Positions 38,046-61,682 of a stretch of DNA of 64,000 nucleotides are shown piece by piece; position 1 is the stretch's first letter; the number at the start of each line of letters is the position of its first letter. The notes under the pieces were generated by a model. The model was not told where the DNA came from, did not search any database, and worked only from the letters and a program-made list of their open reading frames with translations. The translations under genes and the position numbers were made by a program. Source of the DNA: Sphyrna mokarran (lineage: Eukaryota); NCBI GenBank assembly GCA_024679065.1, contig JAGIQG010000004.1:97650001-97714000 (forward strand), written 5' to 3'.

Positions 38046-38099
38046 CCAAAGAAAGGCACTTTTGATTTGAGAGAAGGTACGGAAAGATACTTGGAAGTG

Positions 38100-39060: not shown

Positions 39061-39311
39061 AACCAATCCTTACTCCAGATAGTAAAATCTGGAATATTCA
39101 TCTTGAAACCAGGAAGGAAGGAATATTCTGAAAGATATTCAAGAAATTTTGGTCACACTGTGCCAAAGACAGCTACAGTAAAATTTCAAGGTTTTAAGTT
39201 TCTGAATTGCTGAAATTAGAAATTGGCTCAACATTAGAGTAGAGACTTGCCAAATTTGTGCATGGATGTTGAAGATTATAAAACAAAAAAAAGTACAAAA
39301 AAAAATTTGTT

Positions 39312-39317
39312 TTTATT
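39312..39317 (-). promoter_or_regulatory. Candidate polyadenylation signal of the MFF-like gene (about 2.3 kb 3' UTR)
   Basis: The minus strand reads TGTAATAAA followed by a long T/GT-rich downstream tract; it marks the end of a repeat-poor stretch starting at the stop codon. Confidence 0.55.
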
Positions 39318-41587
39318 ACATGGGTCATCAAAAGGTCCTGTAAATATTTTGGCCCAGGGTTTTTGCAAACCAAGGAACTTGACACTTTTTGGGGAAGGGC
39401 TGAAATGCTACAGCTGAAACAACAAACATTCCTTTGTGTGTGAGAGTCCACATTGGGTATATATTTAAAAATACATAAATATATGTACAAATGACAAGAA
39501 CAGACTTCAATGTGCATTCTCATTCCATAAAATGCAAAATGAAACAGTCAACAGTTGGCCAGATTGTAATACAACTGCTAATTTTTAAATCTCTGCACAA
39601 TTCAGTATTCCTGCATACAGATTTGACTTCATAACATACATCTCTATCGATGTTTATACTGTTCTGTGGCCAGAATGCTTTTAAGTTTTCTTTCACCATT
39701 TCTTGGATTTTAAACCTGCACTTAAATCCAGATTTTTTTAAACTCATTTTTGAATGGAATTTACAGGAAGAGATTTCTCCACAAAAACTGTCATTCTGCC
39801 TGTGCACTGGAAGAGAATATTAAAGTATTTTTACATTTTTAAAAATACTTGAAAAAAATATAAAAATACCAAATAATAGAGGCCTATATTTAGATTATCA
39901 AAACTTGGATAGTTTAGTAGGACTTAGATAAATTCAGTTTTGGAAGCTTTAAACTCAAAGGAATAAATTCTTTGACAATTTTTAATTCTGCCAACTAACT
40001 TTGCTCTAAAAGAGAGAACTCCCATAGATTTAGATTCAAAGGAAAAATTGTTTATATTTAAAACATACACAGGAATATCAAATTTCAATTTGGTTATCTT
40101 ATTTTGACCTATTCATTACTCACAATACATGACCTTAGGTTGAACATTAGTCACTAGAATCTTTCTCTCTTGCACCGCTTTGGAATTGTTTCAATCTTTG
40201 TCCCTCATTGTTCATTGGTGAACGCTAACTCACATCTCCCAATTTGTAGGAGTCATTTTAACATTGCACTGTGTGTTATCCATCAGGAAAGAACCTTCTC
40301 TTACGTCACGTTGAAAACCTGCTGGACCCACTATCCCAGCATATCGTTACACTTTTAGGTGTTAATTGTTTAACTAAATGTGCATATTTAAGCTGTCCAA
40401 CTGGAATACTAGATTCTCACAAGAGCTTGTATGTTACATCGGGTATAGTTCAATATCAAGTGAAACAACTTTAATTAAACAGCATATTGCATTTATAAAT
40501 GTTCCTCAAGCACACTGCATTTAATGTTTCTATTCAAACAAAGGTTTTAAACTGCAATGATCAAGCATATATAAAAATCAGAAGAAACATGAATGATCAT
40601 TCTTGTCGTATTGTAATAATGGGCAGCATTGTTTTTCTAATACTTTAAATTTTAGAAAAACAAATAGCTGTGGGTTACTGAGAATTTCGATCTTTCTGAT
40701 TACAACACGTTAGATTGTTGTGTCTCATACAGCACGTACAAAGACAAAGTAAATTAATTAAAATATACCTACTGACAGCAAGTACACAAGTCAGTATTGG
40801 ATTAGATATCTTCAAATTAACTTAAAATATTACACTGAATTAACATGCAACTTTGGGGGAAAATCTCTTTTTGAGTTTGCATGCAGTTTCACCCCCAATC
40901 ATAGAGCAGACAAATATTTTTGCAGCTCTATAATAAAATAATGCGATATCTGAACAGCAGTTCAAGTATAACATGATTATACTACGTTTGCCTATGATTT
41001 CCTACTGAACAACATAATAAATGTACTTTGGGAAGAGGTCGAGTACATTTCCTTTGGAAAGGAAGGGAGGAAAAAAAACCGTCAAACGTCAAACATTCCT
41101 GCACAAATTCTCATGGGGAATTAGGATTGGCCAAAAATTGCAGGCATTGCCAGTGATGAACAAATAGCAGAGGCTGTCTCTAGTGAGGGAACAAAACACA
41201 GAAGCAGTTTTGCTTACCACCAAGTTTTTTTCAAATTTACTGGTTCATCAACTTGTTTGCGGACAAAATTATTCAAAATTCTTATTATTGCAGTAAAGTT
41301 AGATTTGTGGTGTAAATTAAAGAAAAAACTTTGTAAGTTTTAAACCAATTAGGTTTTGAATGCATTGCACTGACACTTGTAATACAATTTCTCCCAAACT
41401 CACATCACAGTGTTATTAAAATAATGTTAGCAAACTGTTCTAAAGGACATCATTCCCTTGTATTTAGTAATGACACCGATTGCTTCACAAAAGAAACAAT
41501 AACACCCGTCATGTTGCATTCAGAAGATGGTCTCATTCTGTCAGTTTGTAGCACTTTTCCAACTCTACATGTGCAGTTAGAACAAAT

Positions 41588-41719
41588 TTACTTCCTCAGC
41601 CAGAGCCAACTGTTGACAAAACAAGCCGCAATGATGATGGAATAGAGGACAAATTCCTTTCGAGCATGGTCTCGACTCTCCTGTTCCAGTAATTGTAGGC
41701 GCCGATTCAACTTGTTCAA
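41588..41719 (-). CDS. MFF-like terminal exon: coiled coil plus transmembrane tail anchor (LNKLNRRLQLLEQESRDHARKEFVLYSIIIAACFVNSWLWLRK*)
   Basis: ctcttacag acceptor; TAA at 41590-41588; strong match to the MFF C-terminus IIKLNRRLQLLEEENKERAKREMVMYSITVAFWLLNSWLWFRR. Confidence 0.96.
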   Translation of the reverse strand: MNKLNRRLQLLEQESRDHARKEFVLYSIIIAACFVNSWLWLRK

Positions 41720-42083
41720 CTGTAAGAGAGAAAAGTTGGACCCATTGTGTAAAGGAGCTCAATGCCAAAATAAAATTAGAACATCTATTGATTTTCTTTT
41801 GATGATTTAAATCAGATGGAAAATATATGTCTATAGACTGAGGCATCTGCAAAAAGGACGAAGTAGTGCTAAAATAAAATGTAATTTTATTTAGTACTTT
41901 GAAGTCTAAGAGTTAGAATCAAATGTCCAACAACTCAACTTCATGCTATGTTACTAAAGGCATTCAGCTTTTCCAGGGAATGATAGGCACTGTTCTGGAA
42001 ATATAACTGAATTCCAACTCCAAAAAAGTTCATTGTACTCACCTTATTTATATATTTAAATGTTGCCAGTGAAAAGCTCTTAC

Positions 42084-42162
42084 CTGACGCCGGAGTGTTA
42101 CAATTTCCATGACACTGAAATTTTCAAGGACTCCCTCGGGTATTGTGTATTCATGGGTTAAG
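42084..42162 (-). CDS. MFF-like coding exon 6 (LTHEYTIPEGVLENFSVMEIVTLRRQ)
   Basis: tttttcag acceptor, CAG|GTAAGA donor, 79 nt, phase 2->0; ends in LRRQ as in MFF. Confidence 0.92.
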
Positions 42163-42949
42163 CTGAAAAATTAAAATCAAATATGACCCTTGTTTTTCAT
42201 CAATACTAGTTTCATAAAAGCACTCTTATTACTGTATAGAACAGACTTCTTTGGACTTTAGCCTTTGGATTAAAGCACCATTTTAGCTACTAGAAAAGCC
42301 CACATCAGTCAGCACTAAAAGATTTCTCCCAGTATAAACTGTTGTCATTAAACCTGCTCAGTAAGAACTCTGCTGCCCATATCCTTATCCACAGCATCCA
42401 TCTCCCGTCTTCGCTAATCTACATTGGGTGAGATTCTCTAATCTCATCCATACCTGTACAGCTGCCAGCAAGAACAGAGAATTTGACGTTAAGCCAAAAC
42501 TTCAATCACTGCAGCAGCATTGAAGAATCCCAGCCACAGACGAGGTTGAAGGCTTTTGGCAACTGACTACCAGTCAGCCAGTGTCTCATTTAAATTTCCC
42601 ATCTATAAAGTCCTTTCGTAGCCTTACTCCAACAGATCTCTGTAATTTCCTCCAGCCATACAGCTAAAAACATTCCAACTCTAAATTCTCCATTTTTTGA
42701 GCATGTTCCATACTCTTTGGCTTCCCCATTGGTTGCTGTGCCTTTTTCTGTCACTTTGTAATCACTCCCTAGACGTCTGAACCTAGCCACATTTTTCCTC
42801 CTTTAAAACCTTTCTTAAAACTCATTTTTTGGCCTAGTTCTGGGTTACACCTCCCAATATATTTTCCTTGGCTTGAGGCCCATTTTTCTCATAATATTGC
42901 CTCAATGAAGCATTTTGGAATGTTTCACTACCTTAAGAAGTACTATAAA

Positions 42950-43875
42950 AACATAAGAAATAAGATCAAGTGCAGGTCATTTTGCCCTTCAAACCTGCAC
43001 TGTCATTCAACAAGAGCATGACTAATCTTCCACTTCAAGCCTATCTTCCCAAATTACTTCCATGTCACTTAATACCCAAAAATCATATGATTTCTGTCCT
43101 GAATATAATCGATAACTAAGCATCTGTAGCTCTCTGATGTAGAGAACTCCAAAGATTCACAACACTTTGCGTGAAGAAATTTCTCATAACCTCAGTCTAA
43201 ATGCTTGATCTTTTATTCTAAAACTGTGGTCTGTACTCTAGATTCCCCTGCCTGGTGAAACATTTTCTCAGCACCTATCCTGTCAAGTCTTTAATAACTT
43301 TATATATGTTTCCATTAGATTATTTGAATTCTAAGGAATACAGGTCCAATCTACTCAATCTCTCCACATCGGCCAATCTCCTCATCCCTGAAGCTAGACT
43401 ACTGAACCTTTGTTGCACTCCCTCTCGGACGAATGTATCCTTCCTTAGGTAAGGAAACCAAAACTCTTTATATCTTCACCAATTCCTTATGGTACTAAAA
43501 TGTCTTTACTCTGTACTCTAATCTCTTTATACCAAAAGCTAACATATAATTAGTATTCCTAATTATTTGCTGTAACTGGATGTCAACTTTCCATAATTCA
43601 TGAGCAAAGGCACTCAGGTTCCTTTGAATGCCAACATTTCCCAATCTTTCAGCATTCAAAAAGTATTCTGTTTTTTATTTTATTTATTTTTTATTTTTTC
43701 CCACCAAAGTGGATAACTTCACACTAGGCTGCATGGCATTCCATTTGTCTTGTTCATGCCCATTAATATCCCTCTGCCACTCTTTTTCATCGTCATCATT
43801 GCTCACTTTCCCAGCTAACTTTGAGTGCTCAACAAACTTGTTGTAACACATATGTAACACTATGTCCCCTCGTCT
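42950..43875 (-). mobile_element. Degenerate CR1 3' part
   Basis: ACATAAGAAATAAGA tail followed by the reverse complement of CR1 ORF2 C-terminal sequence. Confidence 0.75.
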
Positions 43876-43879
43876 AAAT

Positions 43880-45040
43880 GGGCACTGGAGGCCCAGGCTT
43901 TACCACTTGCAGGAGTAGAGGGAGAACAACAACCAGTGGCAGGAGGTGGCCGCTATATTCCCAGAGGGGCGTGCAGGAGGAGGGAGCAGAAAACCCAGCA
44001 GTTCTGTGTGTTATTTGAACAAATGTCGGACACCACGTACTGCCAATGTCTCCGTCTCCAAAATCAGACAGTGCAATACCTGTGCCACCCTATTGCAGGA
44101 CCTGGCACCTCAGAGAATTGGGGGGAGGGTCCCCTCTTAGTGGCAAATTGATGGCCACTCTGGCTTCAAGACCCCTAGCAAAGATGTATGTGGCATTTCC
44201 CAGTCAACTGTGCATACCTATGTCAAGCAGGTCACAGAAGCCCTGTACACCCGGGCTGGACAGTACATCAAATTTAACCTGGACTAGGTCCATCATGAAG
44301 CCTGGGTTGCAGGGTTCACAGCCATTGTGGGGATGCCTAATGTGCAGGGCCATCAACTGCACACACATCACCCTCAAGGTCTCATTGCAGAATTCAGGAA
44401 GATTTGTCAACAGAAAGGGATTCCATTCACTGAACGTCCAACTGGTGCGTGACCACAATATTCACATTGTGGACGTCTGCGCGAGACACCCTGGCAGCTG
44501 CATGACAGCTTCATTCTCAGGAGCTCTGACATACTAGAAGCATGTGAGGAGGAGCCTAGGCTGAAGGGATGGCTTGAGGGTATATGAATTACCCACTTCG
44601 GACATGGTTGATGATGCCTGTGCAGAGGTCTGTAACTGAAGCGCAGACCCGCTGTATTGAGGCGCGATAGTGGAGAGATGCTTTGGGCTCCTCAAAATGC
44701 AGTTCCAGTGCCTGGACCACTCTAGCATGGCCCAATAATGCAGCCCCCTGATCTCTTCCTGCATTGTAGCAATGTGCTATGACCTGCACAACCTGGCACA
44801 GCAGAGATGTGACCTATTGGAGGTAGAGAAGGAAGCTATGGAGGAGGAGGACATGGAGGCTGACCAGCCAAGCATCCCTGGGGCGAAGGCTGCCCAGCAG
44901 GAGGAGGAGGAGGAAGAAGAGGAAGAGCACGCCAAGCAATACTACCTAGGTGCTGGAGGGCTGGCAGCTCAAATGAGGCATGTGAAGATCGCTGGGGAGG
45001 CCCTGATCACCAGGTGGTTCAGTCACGAGGGAGCCTGTGT
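43880..45040 (+). mobile_element. PIF/Harbinger transposase pseudogene (HARBI1-like DDE)
   Basis: Across frames: CGISQSTVHTYVKQVTEAL, AINCTHI, FVNRKGFHSLNVQLV.D, ARHPGS..HDSFIL, YPLRTWLMMP, VERCFGLLKMQFQCL, CYDLHNLA, then an acidic tail; multiple frameshifts and stops. Confidence 0.9.
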
Positions 45041-45094
45041 CTGTGGGTTCCATTTCACTCCTCACCACCCCCCCACCCCACCCCACCCCACCAC

Positions 45095-45218
45095 CCAGCC
45101 CATGCAGACACAAGGAAAACATGCAAACTCCACACAGGCAGTGACCTGAGCTGGGAATCGAACCCAGGACCCTGGAGCTGTGAAGCAGCAGTGCTAACCA
45201 CTGTACTACCATGCTGCC
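45095..45218 (-). mobile_element. HE1/V-type SINE head
   Basis: Minus strand GGGCAGCATGGTAGTACAGTGGTTAGCACTGCTG...GGGTTCGATTCCC. Confidence 0.8.
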
Positions 45219-45940
45219 CATTCTGTCTATAATTCTGGTCACCACACTATCTGAAGAACAAGAACAAAGAACAGCACATATTGATTGCAATCTTCTTTGA
45301 ATGATCAATAATCACATTTTTTTTTCAATCAATGGACATCCTTTCATCATAAACATGTTTCCCTTCCAACGTACACAAAACTATACTCTTCGATTACATT
45401 AAATTAGATTAATTTTTTTTTAAGCTCCCAACTCACCCGCTCCAGCCTCCTTTGATGTTTTTATATTCTTGGTGGCATGAGCAAATTTTATATTACAATT
45501 AATACCATTTATAAGTACAACTTACACATAATATGTTAATGTTATGAAATATGCTAAGGTAATTCAGGGTGTATGGAGAGAAGTTAAACGAGGGGACTAA
45601 AAGCATTGTCATGATAGGTTTTGAGAAAGATTTTGAAGTGGGAAACAATTAACAGGACAGAGGAATTCTCATAGTTCTCCAGAGTACAAGAGTATAATGC
45701 TGGAAACTATAGCATTTATAGAAGAGCATGCACTAAATGTGATAAAGGAAAAGAAAAATCCAAAAAGGAGAAAGTGATCAAAATATGTGTTCTTCACAAG
45801 TCTCCTAATCTGTCTCATGCACAACACTACCAATACATTTTTAGTAAAATTCTTTTTTTTTTTTTACAGCGTATCTTTCCACTCAAATAATTGAAGATTT
45901 ACAGTTTTTTTTTCCTTTCTCAACCATTCACAACACATTA

Positions 45941-46238
45941 TGGGGATGGTAGCACAGTAGTTAGTACTGCAGCTTCATAGCTCCATGCACCTGGTTTCAA
46001 TTCCCCGCTTGGGTCACTTTCTCCCCATGTCTGCGTGGGTTTCCTCCAGGTGTTCTGATTTCCTCCCACAGTCCAAAGATGTATGGGTTAAGTGGATTGG
46101 CCAAGCTAAACTGCCTCTTAATGGCCCGGGGTGTAGGTAAATATGTAAGGTTACGGAGATAGGGCTTAGGTAGGATTGTTGTCAGCGCAGACTCAATGGC
46201 TGAATGGCTTCTTTCTGCACTGTAGGGATTCTATGATT
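45941..46238 (+). mobile_element. HE1/V-type SINE (tail B)
   Basis: Head, core and GGGATTCTATGATTC tail. Confidence 0.85.
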
Positions 46239-46332
46239 CCTGTACAAATTCTATGGGATGACATACATGTATCCTAGAACAATTTTGCTGATTTGAATGG
46301 AAGCAAGCATTTCAGCCCAATCTTGGTGTAGA

Positions 46333-46757
46333 ATATAGAACATAGAACATTACAGCACAGTACAAGCACTTCAGCCCTCAATGTTGCACCAACCACTGGA
46401 ACCTATCTAATGACCCTCTAACCTAAACTATTCCAATGCTATCTATATGCCTATCCACTGACCATTTGCATGCCCTTAAAGTTGGCAAGTCCACAACTGC
46501 TGCAGGCAGGGCATTCCATGCCCTTACTACTCTCTGAATAAAGAATCTACCACTGACATCCATCCTATAACTACCACCCCTTAATTTAAAGCTATGTCCC
46601 CTCATGTTAGCCATCACCATCTGAGGAAAAAGGCTCTCACTTCCACCTTATCTAACCCTGTGACCATCTTACATGCCTCAATTAGGTCACCGCTTAACCT
46701 TCTTTCCTCTATTGAAAATAACTTCAAGTCCCTCAGCCTTTCTTCATAAGACCTTCA
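46333..46757 (-). mobile_element. CR1 3' fragment
   Basis: ORF 46423..46620: RGHSFKLRGG...FFIQRVVRAWNALP; (ATAGAAC)n tail. Confidence 0.9.
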
Positions 46758-47073
46758 AATATGGATGTGAATATTATAATTCATTTTTCATTTACTAAGG
46801 AGGAACCTGGAGCCCATTTTTCCTGAACCTGGGTTAATTCACAATACCCAGAAGGAAGAAGCTTTCTTGCCCTTCCCTTCCCACAGGTGAAAACTGAGCA
46901 TGCACTTTATTGTGACAAGATTGCAACATTACAGCAAGCATTATATACACTTTTTTGAAAGTTATTTCAAACAAAGCATTTACAGCCAGATATAAAAGTT
47001 TGAGAAAGTAAAAATAAAACTAATATCACAGCATGTTATTCAAGTGCTTCAAGAAAATAAACATGACAATCAC

Positions 47074-47145
47074 CTTTGATTCCTTGTTTGATTGATCCCA
47101 TCCGAATATAGGCTGCTAGAAAGGGGCTGGTTATGGAACCGATTC
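47074..47145 (-). CDS. MFF-like coding exon 5 (NRFHNQPLSSSLYSDGINQTRNQ)
   Basis: ttttctacttttaag acceptor, AAG|GTGATT donor, 72 nt, symmetric phase 2, open frame. Weak homology. Confidence 0.65.
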
Positions 47146-47452
47146 CTTAAAAGTAGAAAAATAAAATGAATTGGCTAAAGAAATACCAGATTGAATCAAA
47201 GCAATTTAAATATCAAAGTTCCTGTGGAACTTAGACATTGCTCCTTTTTTTTTTCTGTTTTTGATCTCACAGAATTTCCTGTGCCCCATATAATTCCCCA
47301 GGCAAAACTGTGGCAACTCAGTTTCACTAACATTTGCCAATGCTGCCCTGCGTCTAAAGGTAACAAAAGCTGAGAAGCCAAAGTGTGACTAAGTGTGATT
47401 TGTCCACCCTAACACTTTCTTTAGCAGGCACACATACAACACATGCAGGAAA

Positions 47453-47792
47453 GTTTTTTTTATTCATTCATGGGACATGGACGTCTCTGGCTGGCCAGCA
47501 TTTATTGCCCATCCTTAGTTACCTGAGGGCAATTGACAGCCAACCACATTGCTGTAGCTGTGGGTCACATGTAAGCCAGACCAGGTAAAGAAGGCAGATT
47601 TCCTTCCCTAAAAAAATTAGTTTTTCTGACAATCAACAATGGTTTCATGGTCATTAGATTCTTAATTCCAGATAATTTTTATTGAATTCAAATTTCACAG
47701 TGTGCCATGCCAGAATTCAAGCCTAAGTTCCCAGAACATTAGCTGAGTTTCTGGATTAACAATCTAGTGATATTATCACTAGGCCTTCACCA
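47453..47792 (-). mobile_element. SINE-like short element made of the 5' head and 3' tail of the 10608-13525 LINE family
   Basis: 47453-47525 matches 10608-10680; 47530-47790 matches 13015-13276 plus 13503-13525. Confidence 0.85.
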
Positions 47793-48829
47793 CATGAAAA
47801 ATAACTTTAGCATATGAAACTCAAGCTGGAAAGGTACTTGGCTTAATGTTTATTGAGCATCAATACTGAGAAAACAGATGATCTTACTCAGAAGAGTCCA
47901 TGTTTGACAAAGTTCTAAATATGTATGTGTCACCAGTTTTTCATTCACATTCAAATCTTGCTCTCCATGATCTTTTATTTCATTGCACGTTAATTAAAAT
48001 GGAAAAAGTAACTTTTTAACTGAGAACATGTCCTCAGCATTTTTGGTTTCTCCACAGGAAGGACACAGAAGCTATTTTTCTCTCAGGCTTCTGCTAATGT
48101 AGTGTAGCTCACATCCAAATGTTGAGAAGTATGTAAAGGTTATCTAGGAATGATATACCTTCCAAAAAACTATTTTTGCAAAAATGCATCCATCACTACA
48201 CTAAAATATAGATCCTTATAAAATATGAAGTCGAAATCTCAGCAGAATTGCAGCAATTCAACAGTGTCCTACTCGTTTATGTCACCACGTGGAAAAATCA
48301 GATTACAAATGGATTACATCATACTTTATTACTCAAAGTAATTCAAATATTCCTTATTTTCAGAATATTCACAAAATATGTTTAAAAACGATCATCCAAC
48401 TGAAAGCCCAGATTGTAAAAAACTCTCTAAAAATTTAAGAGGTTGAAACATAAAAACATGTATAAGCAAACCATCACAACTACAACAAAGTTAACATGGA
48501 CAGTTAGTAAGTTCTACATCACACATGCAGAAGAGTCCTTTCACCAATTTCCACAATAGTAACTGCACTGCATAAAGAGCACAAAACACATTGCCGATTT
48601 AAGCAGTTCCAGCACATGATGCCTGCTGCATATTACATTAACTGCCTCAGCCAGGTGCTTTGCTGAGACTGAATTCTATTTTAACTCTGGGTAAGTTTTG
48701 AATTAGTTAATTCTTGTTCAATATTTCCAATTCCTTCCTTTTTCAATTTTCTGCTGATCTGAATTTGTGTAGAAGATTAATTATATTAAGCTACACTTCA
48801 AAAGAATTATAGGGTGATTTTTTTCATTT

Positions 48830-49255
48830 ATATGTTCACTAGAACTTCTCTGCATTCACTGGCTAACCAGAATTTATTACCTATCTCTAATATCCCTTAA
48901 GAAAGTGGTAACCTGTTTCTGTGAATTGCTGCACTCAGAGTGTTTTGTACACCCAGTATTGTCAGAGAGGAAATTCCAGGATCTTGACCTAGTGACAGTA
49001 GAGAAACAAGTCAGGATGGTGTATGATTTGAAGCAGAACTTGAAGATGGTGGTTTTCCCTGCATCTGCTGCCCTTATCCTTCGAGGTAGTAGAGGTCACG
49101 AGTTCGGAAGCTGCAATTAATGCAGCAATTGAGGGTTGCTGCAGTGCATTTTGTAGATGGTACACGTTGCTGCCAATGTAAGAGAGAGAGTGAATGCTTA
49201 AGGGATAGCTGGGGTGCCAATCAAGTGGACTGCTTTGCTTTGGATGTTCACACGA
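48830..49255 (-). mobile_element. 3' fragment of the 10608-type LINE
   Basis: Colinear with 10610-11060. Confidence 0.7.
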
Positions 49256-49914
49256 TATTCCTTTTTTCCACTGAAAAGGAATATATATTTTAACCTCTAC
49301 ACCAGGAAAATTAATCTGTAATGTGTAATAGAAATTTTTATTTTGATTTGTGAGATTGATCATTTCTGAATCATATTATTGCCATTCTGAGTCATGTTAT
49401 ATCTCATAGCATGTCAGTGGTGTTGAGTTCTGTACACTCTAAAGTACACAAAAATTACAGTATGCTAATCCAATGTTTTTAAGTATGGCTAGTGTGAGAA
49501 GTAATTTTGATCTACTAATGTAAAGAAAGGTTAAATGTGCATGCAGCTAGATCATGCAGTGGGGGGGTATTTAATGCTGAAACTAGCATAAAATTATAGT
49601 TTTACTTTAAACGTAGTGCTTAGAAGCACAGAAGTTTCCTCACAAATGATCACGCACTTAAAAACAGGATTATGATAGATATCAATATACAACAGTAACA
49701 GTATGGTTACTTGCAAACAGTCAAGAATAATTTCCTGACTCTAAGTTGTTTCATTAGTCAGATAAGTATTGATGGCAAAGCATGAATCAGATGCATAGTT
49801 ACTGGAAAAATGTTAATATCTAACAAGCTTCAAAGGTGATGCACTTCGAGCATAGTTTGAGAACAAAAGGACATAAAATAAATTTTTGATGTTACATATG
49901 CCAGTTCCGGTCAC

Positions 49915-50070
49915 CTTCTTCGCATTTTCTGATTGACTGTTTCCATTAAGTATTCTGACAGTTTGTGCCCAACATAAATTAATACATTGCACACATTATG
50001 AATTGAAAAGGATGCCTGGCCAGGTCCAGGTGAAGGGAAAGGATGTTTTGGACCACTGGAATGATCAATC
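49915..50070 (-). CDS. MFF-like coding exon 4 (IDHSSGPKHPFPSPGP...VLIYVGHKLSEYLMETVNQKMRR)
   Basis: ttctatag acceptor, AG|GTGACC donor, 156 nt, symmetric phase 2; ends like the MFF amphipathic segment (...QQILDVLDENRR). Confidence 0.8.
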
Positions 50071-50604
50071 CTATAGAATGGATAGAAGCAAAAGCACCGT
50101 TAAAGCAAATGATTGAATAGTACAGGGAAAGAGTTCATATTCCCCAGATATAGTTCAAGTAATTTGTTACAAAGTATTACATGGAGGGGCATATCGAAGC
50201 ATTTCAAATATAAATAGTCTAAAAGATAATTGGTATATATTTAAAACAAATGCCAGAATAGGATAAGGACATTCAAATTGTTCAGTCAATAATTTCTCAG
50301 CTATCTATTTCACATTGTAGCCCTGGAGATGGGTTTAAAATGCTTGTTCTCAGAGAAGATAATTGTTCTGCAGTCAATTTACTCCTTTAAAAAGAATTGA
50401 TATCTATTAGAATGAACTGCAGGTAGTATTATATTTGTAATATTTCTCAAAGCTGCATTAAGTAAACCGTTATATGTATTTTTGTCAACAGACAGGAGAA
50501 CAGAGTTTTGTTGTTAAGTTTATATGGTATTTATTAACAAAACAATGAAGTTGCTCCGAGACTAAGAGGTTACTGTGAATGATAAAGGAACAATAAAAGA
50601 GGTT

Positions 50605-51000
50605 GTTAGCACTCTCCCCTTAAAGTCAGCATATTCTGGGTGCACATCCCACTCCAGGACTCAAGTACACAATGTACAAAATTCAAGGCTGACACTCCAG
50701 TACAGTACTCAGACAGAGCTACTCTGTTTTGGTGCCACCTAACAGATGAGACATTAAACCAAGGCTCTCTTCAGTGGAAGCAAAAGTTCACATGGCACTA
50801 TCTTGAAAAGGTGTAGGGTATCCTAGCCTATATTTATCCCTCAATGAACCACACAAAACCAAAGCATCTAACCATTAACATATGGCAATTTGAGTAAACT
50901 GGCTGCTGTGTTTCCTACGTTACAACAATGACTACACTTCAACAAAACATCAGCTGTAAAGCACTTTGAGACAGCCAGTGATTGTGAAAGTCATGAAACA
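50605..51000 (+). mobile_element. Deu-domain SINE (SacSINE1/AmnSINE1-like)
   Basis: GCTGACACTCCAGTACAGTACT...GATGAGACATTAAACC...CATGGCACTAT...CTGGCTGCTGTGTTTCCTAC...ACTACACTTCAA...GTAAAGCACTTTG, matched to the consensus from memory. Confidence 0.7.
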
Positions 51001-51507
51001 CACAATATAAATGTAATTTTTTATTTTTGCACTTCACACCATGACACAGACTTGTCAATGCATGCACTGTAATATCTATCCAAGTTTCAATTTTGCATTA
51101 GAAAGTATTTATGCTCAATAAAAATTGGATTATGAACATGTGCACAATAGCAGTTGCTTGGGAGTTAAGGCTCCATAGTTATGATGTTAGATAAAGCAGT
51201 TACAAAAAAAAAATGTACAGGGCTTAGCAGAAAGGCATAAAGAGAAGCCTGTTGCAAAAATATGAATTGCTAGAGGAATAAGTTATCAAAGCAGGATTAG
51301 AAGATCATCAGCACACAAAGGAAGGGAAAATTTAGATTGTACTGTTTGATTGCCAGCAGGTAAGTTAGTGACAGATAATGTTATTACAAGTTTACTGGTG
51401 CCTCAAAAGGCTTCCAACTGCCTTTACTTTATATTCCAAACCATGAGTCTTTGGATCTCAAATTGATGGAATTTTCAATGGCCAAATCATCAAATTATTT
51501 TTAAAGG

Positions 51508-51840
51508 ATTAATTCATGAGATGTGGGCTAGTATTTATTGCCTATCAAGACTGCCCTTGAACTGGGTAGCTTGCTTGGCCATTCCAGAAGCCATTACAGA
51601 GTCAAACACAATGTTGTGGATTTGAAGTCATATGTAGGCCAGACCAGGTAAGAATGGTAGATTTCCTTCCCTATTGGACATTAGTGAACCAGATGGGATT
51701 TTATGACAAACGACAATGGTCATCATTAGGCATTTAATTCCAGAGTTTTTAAAAAGTGAATTAAAATTTTATCATCTGCTGGCATTACCCTGGATCTCTC
51801 AATTATTAGACCAATGACAATACCACTATACCATCATCTC
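51508..51840 (-). mobile_element. Second copy of the short LINE-derived SINE-like element
   Basis: Same order of blocks as 47453-47792 (GTAGGCCAGACCAGGTAAG, TGAACCAGATGGG, CAATACCACTATACCATC). Confidence 0.8.
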
Positions 51841-52644
51841 TCCCTATTATTGTTTACCTGCAGAGTTAATTCTGTAGTAAGTGTTCTGTGTTAATAAAAA
51901 GAATTGCCTTTGGTGGAAAATGAGATGTTTTGGGGGTTTTGAGCTGGTTTCATCTCACCGCACTCCATCATATGCCAAAATTCAAGTGTAAATGAGCAGT
52001 TCTTGAATGCAGCATTTTCAAATCCCAAACTAACCGTGCTTTCCAACTCAGATTATCTGTGAAACTTTTATATGGGCCATGCCAATTAGAATCTGGGTCA
52101 AACTCATTTGGTATGTTTACTTACAGTCTAGGCCTGAGGTACAATCCCTGAAGTAAAATGATATTGCACTAAGCTACTTTCACATTCTATAATATTAAGG
52201 AGGTCACAGAAAGTGATCATTCAGCACAGTGACTATATTGACTGAAAAAAACTAACTGCTCATTCCAATTCCAACTTCCAGCACCTGGTCTGTAACCTTG
52301 CAAGTTACAGCACTTCAGCCAATCACCTTTTAAATGAGTTGAGGGTTTCTGCCTCAACCTCAAAAGAGTGAATTCTACTCTTTCTCCACCCTCTTGGTGA
52401 AAATATGTTCCCTAATATCTCTCCAATACTTCTACTAATTACGTTAGATCTGAAGAACAGTAATATTAGTTGAGTGCTAAAAGTTAGTAAATAACTGGTT
52501 GAGGCTATCAAATTTTCCTTTGCATATCAGATTGCTCTCCATTCCAGTCTGAGCATTGTAGATTTCATTATCATTACTAAAACTGTGCAGGTTTGACTGC
52601 ATGACAATGACAACAAACAGACAAGGTCAACATTTTGTACTTAC

Positions 52645-52733
52645 AAATTTCTCTGCCGCTTGGACACACCCGATAGAGAAATTTCATTCTCACTTAATGT
52701 TCGTGGTCTATTACAATGTTGGGAGGCAGCCAT
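52645..52733 (-). CDS. MFF-like coding exon 3 (MAASQHCNRPRTLSENEISLSGVSKRQRN)
   Basis: ttttgtcacag acceptor, TT|GTAAGT donor, 89 nt, phase 0->2; RPRTLSEN aligns with MFF RERSMSEN. Confidence 0.88.
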
Positions 52734-53199
52734 CTGTGACAAAACAACAAATAATGCTAAATGTTTGCTTCTTACAGGGGTGAACTCAATTTAAGAGTCA
52801 AAGTTCCACCAATTTATCTGGGTAACCTGGGATAGGTGATTGCTATTCAGCCAGTGATACCCAACTCCTGTGACAGCTGCAAAATAAGTTCCAGTTATTA
52901 ATTCTAAAAGCTAAATGCTCTTTTTCCTGAAGAAAGTAGTTTTTTCCAAAAAGCTAGACTACATGGATATCTCCAGGTTCAAGTTTTAAGAATAACTCTT
53001 GAACATTTCATTATTTTCTACTCTTTGTAGTCATTGGTCACCATAGAATTTCCTGCACACAGCACGTGCTACACTAACAGGAGTTTACAGAATATTCTTT
53101 CCTCTCCTTCCCACCTCAAAGCTCAATGAATACTTTACCACCAAGAACTTATTCATCTGAATTCAAAAGATTGACAATCTGAACTCAATAGCAATATCT

Positions 53200-53700
53200 T
53201 TGAGTCAGCAGATCATCCATTAAAGCCCCATTTCACAGGTGAGCATATAACCCAAGTTAACACTCCAGTGCAGTACTAACAAAATGGTACACTATTGCAG
53301 ACTCTATCTTTCAGAGACATATAAACAACACAATGGACTTTTCTAGCCACACTCGTCCCAAAACTGAGAAAACCCGCCCAAACTCAACAGATCTTCCCAT
53401 GATCCGTTACAATTCCTATGGTGGGTGGAACAGGAAAATTCGCACTCATATCTCATGTGAACATAGAAGAGCAGAGGAATTCTTCTGTTGTTGCAGCCAA
53501 TTTTGATCCCTCAATCAACATAACTAAAATAAATCATCTGCTCAATTGCCTTGATTGTTATTTGTCAGTCTTTGCTGTGTGAAAACTGGCTGCAATGTTT
53601 CTTTACATATCAGCAGTAAGTACATTTCAAAAGTATTTCATGAGTTAAAAGGCACTTCCTGAGATCTTGAAAGGCACTATAAAAATGCAAGTTCTTTTTT
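53200..53700 (+). mobile_element. Deu-domain SINE interrupted by a ~115-bp MITE (about 53333-53446)
   Basis: ACACTCCAGTGCAGTACT...AAACTGGCTGCAATGTTTC...GAAAGGCACTATAAAAATGCAAG; the insert resembles 21164-21295. Confidence 0.6.
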
Positions 53701-53817
53701 CTATTTTTGAAGTCCTTGCTTTCAACTGGGAAGTTGGAAAAGGGAATAGAATTATAAGGTTAACAGTCAGCTTACTGCTATACTTTATGAAAGGACACAT
53801 TGTTAATATTTGCATAC

Positions 53818-53975
53818 CTGCAACGGACTCTCGGATCGGTCTACACTCAAAGCATGGGCAGGTCCAAATGTTAAGTTGGGAGAGATGCTGAGTGGTGGAG
53901 GATCTGTTATTGATGGGTTGTTGTGGAACCAACCATACAAGTATGGTCTTGCGCCAATATCCTGCATTTCAGTTT
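53818..53975 (-). CDS. MFF-like coding exon 2 (ETEMQDIGARPYLYGW...RSESPLQ)
   Basis: catcttcag acceptor, CAG|GTATGC donor, 158 nt, phase 1->0, which fits both neighbours. Confidence 0.82.
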
Positions 53976-55479
53976 CTGAAGATGAAAATGCATTATTTGA
54001 AATCAACTGACAAATTCTCTAATTTGAAAAAAGAATTGCTCTTGCCTATTTAGTATCCATTTAGCAATATGTTGAAGAGTCTCACATCAATTGCATACTT
54101 GTCATCATTCAAAGTAACAAAAATATTAAACAAGGAAGGCAGTCACTTCCAACCGGTTCATTTTAACAAGGTGAAACATTTTCAAGCCTACCAATCTGCG
54201 AATTTATCTTATTCAGTTATAAGCCTCTAATTGACTTCAAAATTTACTTCAGTTTTGAGATTTGATCTTAAACAAGAATCTTAGCAGCAGAATAAAACTA
54301 TGTTCAAGTCACATAGCAATAGGTTGTTACAGTTATAAACAGTATTTTAATGACATACAAGAAGTTGCATCAGGAAATCTGTAAATTTTCAATGAAAACA
54401 ATTAAAAGTTTCATAAGCCAACATTTCTTTGAGCAGTGTCTTGAGTCCGCATTCACCATCTGCAAGGTTGTTATTGGGGGCTCAAGATTAGAAGATGCAG
54501 TTCTCGCCAGTGAGAATGCAACTTTGGATCTTCCTGGCCCCTCACCGGTGAAGTCATCAGGATCATACCCAAAATGATATACATATATTTCATGAATGTT
54601 AATATATTTAACACAGCCCCTCATCATTGACTCCTCATCATACATTCAAAATGCACTGATGTGATGTCACATCAGCACAGTTTATAACACGTTTACACAG
54701 ATATGAACCTGTTGTGGGATCACCCGAGGGGCTATATTTACCTTCATGCCTCTGGGGAGAGGGACATAGCCAGATAGTGCCTTAGCAATGCCTCCGGACC
54801 CACCCTTTGCACATGTTGGCACTGCCGAGATGGAACCAGGAGGTGGGAGTGGGGCGTATCAGGAATACTGCTAGATTGAATTGGGGGTGGGGAGGGGAGT
54901 TCCAGAGATCTTAGTGGTTGAGTGGAGAGATTTATTGCAATTCCGATTGGAGCAGCCTTTAAAGACGATGCCCCGATCTCTACTACTGAGTTTTCTAGCT
55001 TGTTTAGGCCCGGACCCCACCATACATCCTCCCCCCGCCCCCCAGCGTGGATCATGTTTTTTTGGCACAGTGTGCTGGATCTGAAAAGAAAACCAACTGG
55101 TTTCTATGGAGAGAAACACATTGGGTTTTCTCATCAGAAACAACACTGCCATTTTTTGGTAAGATTAGCTTTCTGTTTATCATTTATCTTCTGCAATTCA
55201 CAAAGATTTCTGTTCCAAAATGGGAAATTTGAATTTGTCATATTTCAACTACAATAATCAGCATTTATATATTGTGTTTAATGTAATAAAAACATTCCAA
55301 GGTACTTTACAGGAGTGCAATTAAATAAACTTTGGTACCGAATCAAACAAGGCAATATTAAGGTAAATGGCTAAAAACTTGGTCAAAGATCTATATCTTC
55401 AGGTGCTTTTTAAATGGGGGAAGAGAAATGGGGCAGTGCTGAAGATTAGGGGGTGAATTAAACAGTTTGGGACCTTTTC

Positions 55480-55866
55480 TTCCCATTCATGGGACCCAGG
55501 CATGGTTAGCAGGACCAACATTTGTTGCCCGTCCCAAATTGTCCTCTAAAAGATTCTAATAAATTGTCTTCTTGAATCATTGCAGCCTACAAGGTTTATG
55601 TACACCCACAGTGGTGGAAGAAGGCAGTAGCAGGATTCTGACTTTCAGCGAAACCATCGAACAACAATGTAATTCCAGGTTTAGATGGACTTGACAGGTG
55701 GTCCTTATTCACCTGCTGTCCTTGTCATTTTAAATGTTGGAAGTCTTGAGCTTGGAAGGTGCTATCAGAGGAGTTGTGGCAAGTTGCTACAGCGTACCTT
55801 GTAGATGGGACACATTGGTGGTGGAGATAGTGGATGTTTAAGATACTGGGTAGGGTACCAACCAAG
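55480..55866 (-). mobile_element. 3' fragment of the 10608-type LINE
   Basis: Degenerate colinear match to 10615-11030. Confidence 0.6.
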
Positions 55867-56232
55867 CAAGTCTTAAAGGTACAGACAATGTATAGGTAAT
55901 CAAGTCTTAAAGAAACTGACAATGTATAGGTAATCAAGTTTTAAAGTTACAGGCAATGTAAACACCTCTTTAATCTGTGCTTGGCTCTCTCTCCACTCAC
56001 ATTGTCTGTACCTTTAAGACTTGATTACCTGTAAAGACTCACATTCCAACCATTATCTTGTAAATTGAGTTTGTGTCTTTATATGCCCTGTTTGTGAACA
56101 CAAATCCTCACTCACCTGAAGAAGGAGCTTGAAACTCCGAAAGCTGGTGCTGCCAAATAAATCTGTTGGACTTTAACTGGTATTGTGAGACTCCTAATTG
56201 TGCTTACCCAGTCCAACACCACTATTTCCACG
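55867..56232 (+). mobile_element. Penelope-like element terminal repeat with a hammerhead motif and an inverted tandem 5' segment
   Basis: CACCTGAAGAAGGAG...CTCCGAAAGC followed by CCAAATAAA.CTGTTGGACT; preceded by about three inverted 34-bp units. Confidence 0.8.
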
Positions 56233-56279
56233 TTATAAATAAAAGTTCTGCAGTAACTCAACTGAATTAAACATTCTAA

Positions 56280-56910
56280 CTTCTTCCTCCACACTCAGCA
56301 GTTCCCTTTCCAACTCCCCTCCTCCTACTCACTTACTCTGCAACCCTTCTTCCCAACTGCCTCCTCCACTCACTCACTAGCCCCTTTTCCCAAACTCTCC
56401 CTCAGCAGCCTCTCTTCCAAAACCCCCCTCCCCTTCATTCACTCAGCACCCCACTTCCCAACTCAGTTCTCCCTACTCATTCAGCAGCCCCTTTTCCAAA
56501 CCCCCCTCACTACTCAGCAGCCTCACTTCCCAACCTACCTCCCACTCACGCATCAATCCTTTTTTTCAATCCCCATCCAGCACTCACTCAGCAGTTCTTC
56601 CCAGCCTCTCTCCCTCATTCAGCGGCCCCTTCCCAACCCATCTCCACCTACTCATTATCCCCTCTTCCCAACTCCCTTCCTTCCCTTACTCACTCAGGAC
56701 TCCCTTTTCCCAAGTCCCTCTTACATCACTCAGAAGCTCCTCTTTACAACTCCTCAACCATTCGGCAGCCCCTCTTTTCAACGCCACTCCCACTCGCTCA
56801 GCCACCCATCTTCCCAACTTGCCTCCCCCATTCACTCAGCAGTTCCTTTTCCCAATTCCCCTCAGCCCTCCACATGTGACATGCACTCACTCAGCAGCTC
56901 TCCTCTCCCT
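56280..56910. repeat. Degenerate CT-rich minisatellite (roughly 29-32 bp unit, approx. CACTCACTCAGCAGCCCCTCTTCCCAACTCCC)
   Basis: The blocks ctcactcagcagc and ttcccaact recur about 20 times. Confidence 0.85.
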
Positions 56911-57982
56911 GGTGTGAAGGCAGCACACAAACATCCTGGGCCAACATAAATTCATAACTAAAGTGGTCTCTGATGTTTAATGATGCTTTGAGCTCAATCT
57001 CCACTCATTGTTGTTCAGCAGCGTCAAACCAGTGGACTCAGGGATGTCCTGCCAGAGCCTTCAGACTGGGTGGTCTTCTCTCCAGTCGCCATTTCTGCCT
57101 GCTATAAGGGCAGTTCACAATGGCAAATGTGACTACTACTACTCTTTTGGGGATGTCTACCCAAGGTTTGGAAATTCCTATCTTAAGCTACCTATAAGGC
57201 TTAAGTCAGGGTGTGATGAAATTCTCAGATAGGTTGGAAATTGTCTCAACATGCAAGAGGATTGCTAACACCTAGGGCAATGCAGTGTTTTTGTTTAATC
57301 AGCATTCATGTCACTGAACTCAATATTTGCCCTTCTTACCACAACTCATCATAGAGACAGTATTCAATACTCACCAAACTTGCTTCAACAGCATATTCCT
57401 CCCTTGCAATGGCTACCAAAAAGGAAGAAAGGGAAAAATGTCTTGGGAATACCCTGACATCTCAACTCCCCAAATCTCACACAAAACAATTTGTACATAT
57501 ATCAGTGTTCATTCATCATCATTGCAGTGTTTCAATTAGAAGTCCACCAATACAGTTTGAAGGCAACTAGGGATGGACAATAAATATAGTCTTGCTCATT
57601 ATTTAAAAAGAAAATGTACTTGAGATATGGATAAAGTCATTCCAGGAGGGGCACTAAAAAAATAAAGTATGCATTCTGGTGGGCCTCACTACCACAAGGT
57701 ATAGCATAGATTATTTAATAGGAAGCTAGATAAATGAGGGTAAAGCAATTAAATTCTATGCTAATACAGTTAGATAGGAGAGTTATGAAGAAGCTTGAAA
57801 GAAGCATAAAAATGGACTGGTTGGGCCAAGTATACTTTTCTATGCTGTAAATTGTATATATAATTGTTCATTTTAATTACAGACTTCTTCAGCTAAACGT
57901 ATAGAGACCTGGATCAATACACAGATATGAATATAGAAACCTGTATTCCTGATGGTGGTTTATTGATATTAACTTAATTTAC

Positions 57983-58190
57983 CTCCCATCGATATTCTTT
58001 CAGGAATTTGCATCTGTAGCGTTGACAGGTGAATATCTTCTACTTTCTCTTCATCCTCTTGCTCCTCGGTCACTTTTAGTCTATTAGGAATTCGCATTTT
58101 CTGACCTATAACCTCCATGAAACCTAGGTCACAAGGAGCTGGACCAGAATCTATCAGATCAGAAGGTGCTGCAAATGCTAGTTCTGTCAT
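57983..58190 (-). CDS. MFF-like first coding exon (MTELAFAAPS...QKMRIPNRLKV...MQIPERISMG)
   Basis: Acceptor cctttag 5 nt before GCC-ATG (ATG at 58190); G|GTAAAT donor; carries both Drp1-binding-type repeats. Confidence 0.92.
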
Positions 58191-58345: not shown

Positions 58346-61300
58346 AGAATAAAGAACAAAGAACAAAACAGCATGGAAAACAGGCCCTTCGGCCCAACGA
58401 GCCCACACTGCCACCCCGATGTTCCCACCTCTGCCCGTGATCCCTGTCTATGTTTATAGATCTATGGATTAAATACCAAATTTGAGACAATTTACAGAGG
58501 ATTTGTTTTGCCAATTAGCCTAAGAGCACATCTTTGGGATGTGGGAGGAAATCAGAGCACCCGGAGAAAACCCATGCAAGCACAGGGAGAATGCGCAAAC
58601 TCCCACAGACACAGGCCCAAATCCACGTATCTGCACAGCACAGCGATAGTCACTGAGCTGTTGTGTTGCCCATTAAATGGTCCAGGTCAAGCGTACACTA
58701 ACAATGTGAAGCATTAGGATACTCTCGAAAAAAATCCAACAGCAGCCCTCTCACGACCCTTCGCGTGTATGCCCCTTGTTAGACAACAAGGTGGACCAAA
58801 GCACCTGTAGGATAAAAACATCAATATCATCATCTATTTACACACTTCCCAGGGACTCCCAAAGCTCATGATTCCTATTTTTAAATCAGTTTTCTATACC
58901 CCTCCATTCCCATTCTGTTCATGTGCTCATCTAAATATTTCTTAAATAACTCCAGAGTACCTGCCTCTAGCATCCAAATTATACCTTACCCCCCTCACCA
59001 CAAGCCTGTGACCCCTCGTGCTATTCCAGTCCATCCTAGGAAAAAGCTTAACCCTGTTTACTCTATCCATACCCCTCAATCTTGTACACCTCTATTAGAT
59101 CTCCTCTAAGTCTACGTCTTTCTAAGGAAAACAGTCCCAATTTGCCTAACCTCTCCTCGTAACTCAGACCTTCCATACCAGGCAGCATCCTGGTAAACCT
59201 CCTCTGCACTCTCTCCAGAGTCTCCACGTCCTTCCGGTAGTAAGGCGACCAGAACTGGACGCAGTATTCCAAATGAGGTCTAACCAACGTTTTATACAAC
59301 TGCAACATTAAAGGCCAGCTCTTGTACTCTATACTTCTTCCTATAAAGGCTAGCATACCATATGCTTTCTTCACAACCTTCTCCACTTGCTCTGCCACCT
59401 TCAGAGACTTGTTCACCTACACCCCCAAGTCCCTCTGCATTTCTATACTCTTAATAGGTCTACCCTTTATCACATACCTCCCCCCTACATTCTTTCTCCC
59501 GAAATGCATCACCTTGCATTTATCAGGATTGAATTCCATCTGCCATCTGTCTGCCCAAGCTACCAGCCTAGCTATGTCCTGCTGCATCACGTGACAATGC
59601 TCCTCACTATCCGCAAGTCCAGCCACCTTTGTATCATCTGCAAACTTGCTGATTACTCCACTTACTCCCTCTTCCAAGTCATTTATATACATTACAAATA
59701 GAAGAGGTCCCAGTACCAAGCCCTGCGGCACACCATTACTGACCAACCTCCAGCTAGAAAAACACCCTTCCACTATTACTTTGTCTCCTACTACTAAGCC
59801 AGTTACTTATCCATTTAGCTACCTGTCCTTGTATCCCACGAGCCTTGACCTTCTCAACTAACCTCCCATGAGGGACTTTGTGAAACGCCTTACTAAAATC
59901 CATATATACGACATCAACGGCTCGCTCTTCGTCCACTGTTTTCATCACCTCCTCAAAAAATTCTACCAGATTTGTAAGGCATGACCTCCCCTTAACAAAT
60001 CCATGCTGCGTATCCCTAATCAGATTGCAACACTCTAAGCGCCTATACATCCTATCTCTAAGAATCCCCTCCAACAGCTTCCCTAGCACTGATGTCAAAC
60101 TCACCGGCCTATAATTTCCAGGGTTATCCCTACTACCCTTTTTAAACAATGGTACAACATTAGCTATTCTCCAGTCCTCTGGGACCTCATCTGTGTCCAA
60201 AGAAGAGACAAAGATTTGCGTCAGAGGCCCAGCAATTTCACCTCGCATCTCCCTAAGCAGCCTGGGATAAATGCCATCAGGCCCTGGAGACTCATCAGTT
60301 TTAATGCTACCTATAAGCTCTAACACTTCCTCCCTCGGTATGGATATTTCCCTCAACTGGTCCACAGCTCTCTCAGAGACAGGAGCTGTCAACAAGCCCC
60401 TCTCCTTTGTGAATACCGACGCAAAGTATTCATTCAGGATCTCTACCATTCCCTCCGGCTCTAAGCACGGTTCCCCTCCTCTAACCCTAAGAGGTCCGAT
60501 TTTTCCTCTAACCACCCTTTTATCCCTAACATAGGAGTGAAAAGCCTTTGAATTTTCCTTAATTCTATCTGCCAAAATCATTTCATGCCCCTTTTTTGCC
60601 CTTCTAACTTCCCGTTTGAGCTCCCTCCTACTCTCTCTATATTCCTTCAACGCTGTCTCCGTTCCCAGCTGCTTTGACCTATCATATGCCTCTCTTTTCT
60701 TCCTAACCAAGTCCTCAATATCCCTAGTAATCCATGGCTTTCTAATCCTACCTTTCCCATCCTTCCTCTTAGCTGGCACTTATCTATCTTGCAACATTTT
60801 CAGTATTCCCTTGAAAGAGTCCCACATGCCTAGCGTGGACTTACCCTCGAATAACCATTCCCAATCAGTTTCCATAAGTTCCTGCCTAATCCGACCATAG
60901 TTAGTTTTTCCCCAATTCAGCACCCTGCCCCTAAGGCAACAAGCATCCTTTTCCATCTGTACCCTAAAGTAGACAGAATTGTGGTCACTGTTAGCCACAT
61001 GTTCCCCCCTACTACAACATCAACGACCTGCCCTGGCTCATTACTCAGAATTAAATCCAATATAGCCCCTTCTCTAGTCAGGCTAGCCACGTACTACTCC
61101 AGTGATCCTTCCAGTACACATTTTCCAAACCCCCAGCTCTAGGTACTTTCCAATCCACCCTGGGGAGATTAAAATCTTCCACTATAACGACTCTGTTCCT
61201 TCTGCACCTATCCAAAATGTCTTTACACATGCCTTCTTCAACTACCCGCGGGCTGTTGGGTGGCCTATAATACACCCCTAGCATAGTAATTGCCCCCTTT

Positions 61301-61520
61301 CTATTCCTCAATTCCACCCACAGCGACTCTGCTCCTAACTCCTCTGTATTGTCCTCCCTCTGCACCGCCGTGATGCTCTCCTTAATTAACAACGCCACCC
61401 CTCCACCTCTTCTGGACTCTTCTCTGTCACACCTGAAACACTTATACCCAGGAATGTTCAGTTGCCACTGCTCCCCTTCCTTTAATCACGTTTCTGTCAC
61501 CGCAACCACATCCAAGTTCC
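58346..61520 (-). mobile_element. CR1 LINE with near-complete disrupted ORF2 (endonuclease plus RT) and an extended SINE-core 3' UTR
   Basis: ORFs 61078..61398 (GVYYRPPN), 60780..60998 (SDHN), 59754..60779 (SPGPDG, NYRPVSLTS, QHGF, YMDFSKAF), 59417..59773 (GVPQG, KFADDTK) and 59063..59416; separated by stops and frameshifts. Confidence 0.97.
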
Positions 61521-61682
61521 TCACAACCTTTCTTATGCATAGCCCAAGCAAAATTGGTAGCAATCTTTAAGTACATACTAAATTCCCAATCTTTGGCTAC
61601 ATAATACTTCAATTCATTTTATAAGTCAAAGTCACTGTTGATTTTTTGCACAAGGTTTGTTTCATATTTTGAATGTGCTATG

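Follow-up and report, generated by a model that had tools for sequence, protein, structure and literature searches.

A probable FATE1 orthologue with both N-terminal MFF repeats in the shark Sphyrna mokarran, a candidate second Drp1 receptor of jawed vertebrates outside the therian mammals

Which member of the family of MFF (mitochondrial fission factor) is encoded by a divergent shark gene that keeps the N-terminal repeats of MFF, and could its product still recruit Drp1? The gene lies on the minus strand, between positions 41588 and 58190, of a 64,000-nucleotide stretch of Sphyrna mokarran DNA (contig JAGIQG010000004.1, positions 97,650,001 to 97,714,000), the whole of which is here called the window. 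A preliminary description had considered it a whole-genome-duplication paralogue of MFF, linked to the mammalian X-linked gene FATE1, and a possible second Drp1 receptor of sharks. Our comparisons indicate that it is almost certainly an orthologue of FATE1. Its product may be a second, weaker or conditional, net pro-fission Drp1 receptor on mitochondria, a reading to which we assign a probability of about 0.55.

The gene model obtained by splice-site listing and translation comprises seven coding exons of 208, 158, 89, 156, 72, 79 and 132 nt, which join into a coding sequence of 894 nt and a protein of 297 residues (aa) with a single terminal stop; all six donors are GT and all six acceptors AG, in agreement with the preliminary description. 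The architecture described there was also recovered: two N-terminal repeats identified by a motif pattern search, R1 (MRIPNRLKV, aa 32–40, positions 58071–58097, minus strand) and R2 (MQIPERISM, aa 60–68, positions 57987–58013, minus strand), a coiled coil and a tail anchor, with the protein ending in WLWLRK. The Pfam family Miff (PF05644) matched the 92 %-identical protein of the basking shark with E=3e-32 (112.9 bits, cut-off 23), and exons 1 and 7 of the window gene each exceeded the Miff cut-off.

Two Miff loci were found in the genome (six matches, with 10 candidates scored), namely the window and contig C882. The C882 gene holds the MFF hallmarks that the window gene is without. A COL4A pair is situated at a distance of 17 kb from it, and an IRS gene follows 0.55 Mb beyond; a conserved MFF gene is thus found beside COL4A genes, where the preliminary description had suggested looking for it, and its view that the window gene is not the MFF orthologue is upheld. 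The window protein is 30 % identical (84/284) to the MFF of the same shark. Both genes have seven coding exons with the same phases at six of six introns (1,0,2,2,2,0), and exons 3 and 7 are of 89 and 132 nt in both, so that the window gene is a duplicate at the DNA level and not a retrocopy. With MFF, as represented by the C882 gene and by the teleost proteins called MFF homolog A or B, it also shares the Miff family, R1, R2, the coiled coil, the tail anchor, the optional exon 4 and the RxxSEN-type motif of exon 3 (RPRTLSEN, aligning to RERSVSEN of MFF). It differs from MFF in the absence of a third, TPPRVLTL-type motif, in the signature of its anchor, in its chromosome and neighbours and in its position outside the MFF clade. 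A reading of the exon 3 motif as an AMPK site was dropped, since what the window protein retains is no more than the RxxSEN frame, in which T occupies the first position. Separately, database protein P0139 joins an apparent collagen IV NC1 part to the C-terminus of MFF; it is likely a fused gene model or a read-through and fits the adjacency of COL4A and MFF.

The phylogeny of the spliced protein was based on 54 rows, hand-picked from about 255 proteins with fragments and near-duplicates omitted; the grouping of seven vertebrate rows and of 10 of the 11 non-amphioxus "invertebrate" rows was read from sequence and tree, not from the name. The window gene was placed inside a clade of 29 rows (support 98/93) with all eight FATE1-named rows, which come from birds, reptiles, marsupials and eutherians, and the 11 MFF rows stood apart (95/93). 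Forcing the chondrichthyan genes together with MFF was rejected by the approximately unbiased (AU) test (p=0.019). A tree of 37 rows, from which lamprey, lungfish, fragment and some other rows had been removed, gave the clade a support of 100/99 and rejected the MFF grouping with p=0.0009, and the 62 C-terminal columns common with eutherian FATE1 (51 rows) gave 94/90. The link to FATE1 made in the preliminary description is therefore supported by a grouping with FATE1-named proteins outside the MFF clade, in a sample without human, mouse or frog rows. These trees, the intron phases common with MFF and the presence of a PRRG3-type gene 39 kb away, on a chromosome homologous to the X, are the grounds on which we consider the gene a FATE1 orthologue. 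The tree also implies a duplication older than the split between sharks and bony fishes. One lamprey row joined the FATE1 side with 97/90 in the 54-row tree, although not on the C-terminal columns, and the corresponding AU test was borderline (p=0.051). Petromyzon marinus has two MFF-family genes (P0146, P0235), one of which keeps the third motif; the other, without it, leans to the FATE1 side.

In the 54-row set, the pattern search found both R1 and R2 in 24 of 24 non-therian rows of the FATE1 lineage (seven chondrichthyan and 17 bony, platypus included), whereas the repeats were eroded in all five therian rows, with one or none left in three marsupials and none in two eutherians. A profile of the R1-R2 region, whose training set of 19 rows came only from MFF, lampreys and invertebrates, scored 44 bits with the window protein, against at most 5.6 bits for 200 shuffles of exon 1; the 24 non-therian rows reached 31–50 bits and the five therians no more than 8.7. 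When the window protein was compared with the 17 bony-vertebrate rows, R1 (65 %) and R2 (57 %) were the best-kept parts of the lineage, followed by the anchor (51 %), the coiled coil (40 %), the linker (14 %) and exons 2–5 (6–15 %), and R1 fits the consensus of MFF and invertebrates. Since both repeats are strongly conserved in all the sampled non-therian lineages, they presumably do something, and their sole known partner is Drp1.

Mammalian FATE1 and the window gene have in common the clade, a coiled coil and tail anchor with the signature AC..N.WLW, the absence of the third motif, and a place next to a PRRG3-type gene on an X-homologous chromosome. They differ in length (297 aa in the window protein, 177–221 aa in the two eutherian rows), in the repeats, both of which are intact in the window protein and undetectable in those eutherian rows, and in the optional helical exon of the window gene.

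The same type of gene is widespread, under diverse names, in the databases. Chondrichthyan orthologues from sharks, rays and a chimaera are 64–92 % identical to the window protein over their full length (n=6 rows; basking shark 92 %, chimaera 64 %). Out of 34 candidates, a search with exon 1 identified 23 proteins, each of them from a shark or ray and carrying Miff, and 22 of which are named "mitochondrial fission factor", with or without "-like" or "homolog A-like"; their aligned exon content is identical, and exon 1 is 83–99 % identical to 16 shark rows and 75–79 % identical to seven ray rows. A profile search of cluster representatives yielded 136 proteins, for 30 of which names were obtained, and placed five bony-vertebrate proteins above the first canonical MFF: two from coelacanth and one each from a caecilian, a bichir and a bird, the last carrying the name "fetal and adult testis-expressed transcript protein". 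The repeat-bearing type was also found in lungfish, sturgeon, bowfin, teleosts, newt, turtle, lizards and platypus. The form that the preliminary description had presented as peculiar to sharks is therefore common to coelacanth, lungfish, ray-finned fishes, amphibians, reptiles, birds and platypus. Seven of the 15 members listed for one bird cluster are called FATE1, and most others MFF homolog B-like. By their shared clade, both repeats and lack of the third motif, the RefSeq proteins labelled "mitochondrial fission factor-like", "homolog A-like" or "homolog B-like" are direct orthologues, present in sharks, coelacanth, lungfish, bichir, sturgeon, bowfin, teleosts, amphibians, reptiles and birds, to which a platypus entry of UniRef can be added. 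Their labels are automatic and inconsistent, and the literature searched contained no functional study of them. The orthology is partly implicit in the databases already, some bird and reptile members being named FATE1 in RefSeq. The teleost "MFF homolog B", which a word-based search had made us suspect as an orthologue, is canonical MFF by the tree. No solved structure matched the family in our search, which returned three chance hits (E 0.17–0.25).

The neighbourhood of the gene bears on the same question. Upstream of the start codon and on its strand, at a distance of 46 kb, there is a Gla exon; the last exon of that gene, 39 kb upstream, codes for a membrane helix and two PPxY motifs; judging from this combination of predicted features, it is a PRRG gene. 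We take it to be PRRG3, although no search named it and two Atlas look-ups gave it no name; two other PRRG-type genes occur on other contigs. Human FATE1 is directly preceded by PRRG3, in the same orientation, and has CNGA2 as its other neighbour. PRRG3, CNGA2 and FATE1 are described as Xq28 genes (PMC5757860; PMC10380301). On turkey chromosome 9, which also holds IRS4 and COL4A5/6, CNGA2 and PRRG3 are listed consecutively (PMC8470100). The contig of the window (C993) resembles this chromosome in having a CNG gene at 65.46 Mb, a COL4A pair at 127.9–128.5 Mb and an IRS gene at 128.58 Mb, all about 30 Mb from the window gene.

A COL4A pair and an IRS gene are thus present on both C882 and C993, but it is the C882 gene, and not the window gene, that fills the place beside them. 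Because the shared genes are some 30 Mb away, paralogy with the MFF contig holds at the scale of the chromosome only, which fits a genome duplication without proving it. To this extent the idea of a whole-genome-duplication paralogue stands, as a DNA-level duplicate on a paralogous chromosome. The accompanying argument from synteny, which set out from an adjoining SYTL4 gene, is right as to the COL4A pair and the IRS gene on the contig; however, the block is distant, and the telling neighbour is the PRRG3-type gene. An SYTL-type gene with C2 exons, presumably SYTL4, is present in the window; the C2 exon search did not single out SYTL4 among C2 proteins. The last exon of a presumed TMEM47/PERP-like gene is also found, some 200 kb away from the window gene (C993:97904453-97904788, minus strand), a 56-aa piece with no Pfam hit.

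A function for the window protein can be proposed by analogy with MFF, which is tail-anchored and requires oligomerisation to activate Drp1 (PMC9221819). R1 and R2 of mouse Mff, together with the stalk of Drp1, are the minimal interaction unit (PMC4666140). In the window protein, anchorage in the outer membrane would fall to the hydrophobic tail and its basic end, leaving the N-terminus in the cytosol, and the coiled coil would mediate oligomerisation, in sharks possibly with MFF itself, as 18 of 28 residues are identical. The clustered R1 and R2 would then bind the stalk of oligomeric Drp1, and loss of the third motif would render this binding weaker or conditional. We consider it probable that the window protein binds Drp1, and likely that most vertebrates besides marsupials and placentals have a putative second Drp1 receptor. 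The history that we envisage would start with a duplication before the shark/bony-fish split, as read from the tree, and continue with an early loss of the third motif in the FATE1 copy. R1 and R2 would then have been kept in every sampled non-therian lineage, until erosion of the repeats in marsupials and placentals led to the Drp1-independent, anti-fission FATE1 of human cells.

Several observations weigh against this reading. The TPPRVLTL-type motif, present in all 12 invertebrate rows, in one of two lamprey rows and in eight of 11 MFF rows (the three misses being partial sequences), is absent from all 29 rows of the FATE1 lineage, so that the "full MFF architecture" attributed to the window protein goes too far. 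This motif is probably the R3 of an earlier study (PMC4666140). In yeast two-hybrid assays, truncations without R3 no longer bound full-length Drp1 at all, and fragments with R1 and R2 bound only once insert B had been removed from Drp1 (PMC4666140). Moreover, R2 has changed throughout the lineage: a position that is mostly aliphatic in MFF and invertebrates is polar here. Human FATE1, the sole member that has been studied, is reported to have an R2-like motif and no R1, not to bind Drp1 and to promote hyperfusion via Mfn2 (10.1101/2025.08.18.670752), whereas R1 of the window protein is intact; the earlier contention that FATE1 lacks the repeats is thus correct for R1 of the human protein and not for R2, a likeness of which is reported as kept. 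With respect to orthology, the eutherian rows of the tree, which has no human, mouse or frog row, are two afrotherians on a long branch, and the sole CNG match on the contig is 32 Mb from the gene, which is hence not adjacent to CNGA2 as human FATE1 is.

The loss of the third motif can also be understood as a sign of a brake on fission, in which the FATE1 orthologue, either by weak binding of Drp1 or by joining MFF oligomers with its near-identical coiled coil, dilutes Drp1 activation; on this view, the anti-fission FATE1 of mammals would have developed from a regulatory role that is itself old. The loss in 29 of 29 rows is in line with this, given the requirement of R3 for binding to full-length Drp1 (PMC4666140), as are the opposition of human FATE1 to fission (10.1101/2025.08.18.670752) and a coiled coil that is identical to MFF at 18 of 28 positions in the window protein (compared with the shark's own MFF) and at 19 of 28 in the chimaera. 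However, nine bony-vertebrate rows have drifted to 7–13 of 28 in the coiled coil while R1 and R2 stay conserved, so selection appears to have acted more on the repeats than on likeness to the MFF coil, and we regard a brake as unlikely, if a serious candidate. It is decidedly less probable that the repeats are kept for another partner or place, such as the other Drp1-like gene in the shark genome, or Drp1 located on peroxisomes or the endoplasmic reticulum (ER) instead of mitochondria. The genome does contain two Drp1-like GED exons, and the lineage-wide changes affect both R2 and the tail anchor (AC..N as opposed to FW..N); the anchor of the window protein is somewhat more hydrophobic than that of shark MFF (1.94 versus 1.56), and human FATE1 was found on the ER as well as on mitochondria (10.1101/2025.08.18.670752). 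Against this, R1 matches the consensus of MFF and invertebrates, and co-retention with the second Drp1-like gene would have to be assumed. As an observation in its own right, the second GED exon (C335:79804075-79804239, minus strand) is at most 85 % identical to the compared Drp1 proteins, versus 96 % for the DNM1L exon, and the shark seems to have two Drp1 paralogues.

There is very little room for a private MFF duplicate of cartilaginous fishes, drawn to FATE1 in the trees by fast evolution. Its coiled coil is nearer to MFF than to bony-vertebrate FATE1, internal branches are long, and BLAST identity to the bony members is only about 27–34 % over the full length; yet this arrangement was rejected by both AU tests (p=0.019 and p=0.0009), the gene resembles the FATE1 lineage in having lost the third motif and in its AC..N anchor, and it adjoins a PRRG3-type gene on the contig that also bears a CNG gene, an IRS gene and two paired COL4A genes. 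That the locus is a pseudogene or a chance assembly of exons has a negligible probability. Although just one of six introns was seen among the joints listed, in a single run only guessed to be RNA, the 297-aa frame is open with canonical splice sites, contigs limited to exons match without mismatch, and the identity of 64–92 % across sharks, rays and chimaera refutes such an origin. A weaker or conditional second receptor for Drp1 remains the reading that we prefer for the window protein.

The individual exons, all on the minus strand, can now be located. Coding exon 1 (57983–58190, 208 nt, aa 1–69) contains the start codon, a segment preceding R1, R1, the linker and R2. It is preceded by a predicted 5′ untranslated exon (61579–61677) with AG/GT ends that matches the N-terminal extension of a RefSeq model. 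In the Mustelus RefSeq model, the peptide formed by residues 1–9 of this extension recurs in many copies, similar to long interspersed nuclear elements (LINEs), of the region, and these residues are likely an annotation artefact. Exon 2 (53818–53975, 158 nt) is the counterpart of the MFF exon that holds the third motif, absent here, and, like exon 3 (52645–52733, 89 nt, equal in length to the MFF exon), has a contig match. Exon 4 (49915–50070, 156 nt, phase 2-2) was the best-ranked candidate in its intron and has its own contig of 214 nt, and exon 5 (47074–47145, 72 nt) corresponds to the opening 72 nt of a contig of 3860 nt. The coiled coil begins in exon 6 (42084–42162, 79 nt) and continues in exon 7 (41588–41719, 132 nt including the stop, as long as the MFF exon), which also encodes the tail anchor and the basic tail. 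An extra exon at 54533-54457 was rejected, having a poor acceptor, being missing from 16 aligned orthologues and being skipped by the contig that runs from exon 2.

These contigs come from one run, of unrecorded tissue and only guessed to be RNA, which was compared with positions 46800–55200 of the window, the stretch of exons 2–5. They match the four exons with zero mismatches, and the joint between exons 2 and 3 spans the intron (CT..AC) at a depth of 66.6. Splicing as foreseen in the preliminary description is accordingly documented in this run for the exon 2-3 junction, one of the six introns among the joints listed, exons 1, 6 and 7 lying outside the compared stretch. Since the 3860-nt contig starts at exon 5, a 3′ untranslated region of about 3.6 kb is implied, at about 38000–41588 (minus strand), in the direction of the SYTL-type gene, which is convergent. 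Pairs of isoforms that include or omit exon 4 (297/245 aa or equivalent) are annotated in Heterodontus, Heptranchias, Mobula and Callorhinchus, and exon 4 is likely alternatively spliced, as is the corresponding exon of MFF.

The introns and flanks contain repeated sequences. Intron 5 carries, on the plus strand at 44019–44534, a remnant of a Harbinger-type DDE transposase, with a PF13359 score of 24.7 bits that is just below the cut-off of 24.8. Within intron 1 there are 2.8 copies of a 34-nt unit (55867–55960) and a C-rich array of units of about 40 nt (56306–56508). Two long open reading frames, at 59063–61485 (minus strand) and 30990–31616 (plus strand), look like pieces of CR1-type LINE reverse transcriptase, by appearance only.

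Taken as a whole, it seems to us about an even chance that non-therian jawed vertebrates have an unrecognised second Drp1 receptor of the MFF family, from which human FATE1 would have arisen in two steps: the third motif would have been lost close to the origin of vertebrates, and R1 and R2 would then have eroded in therians, turning a fission receptor into an antagonist. The literature searched, a scope that excludes most subscription papers, among them the first studies of MFF and FATE1, contained no paper that deals with how FATE1 originated or with its repeat-bearing form, and two seeming non-mammalian hits proved to be spurious word matches. One review assigns FATE1 to a network of mammalian origin (PMC10380301). 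The surprise is limited, as the gene is already in databases under automatic names. Nevertheless, the origin of FATE1, treated until now as a mammalian cancer-testis gene, would move back at least to the common ancestor of jawed vertebrates. The family would offer a natural series with three motifs in MFF, two in FATE1 from shark to platypus and none or one in therians, which makes it possible to examine with natural proteins both the contribution of R3 to Drp1 recruitment and the passage from a fission receptor to an anti-fission, anti-apoptotic factor. Vertebrate Drp1 receptors are few in number, and a paralogue may be overlooked when loss of mff function is studied in fish, amphibians and birds; if the proposal is true, mff mutants of fish, frog and chicken would be partly masked by a repeat-bearing FATE1.

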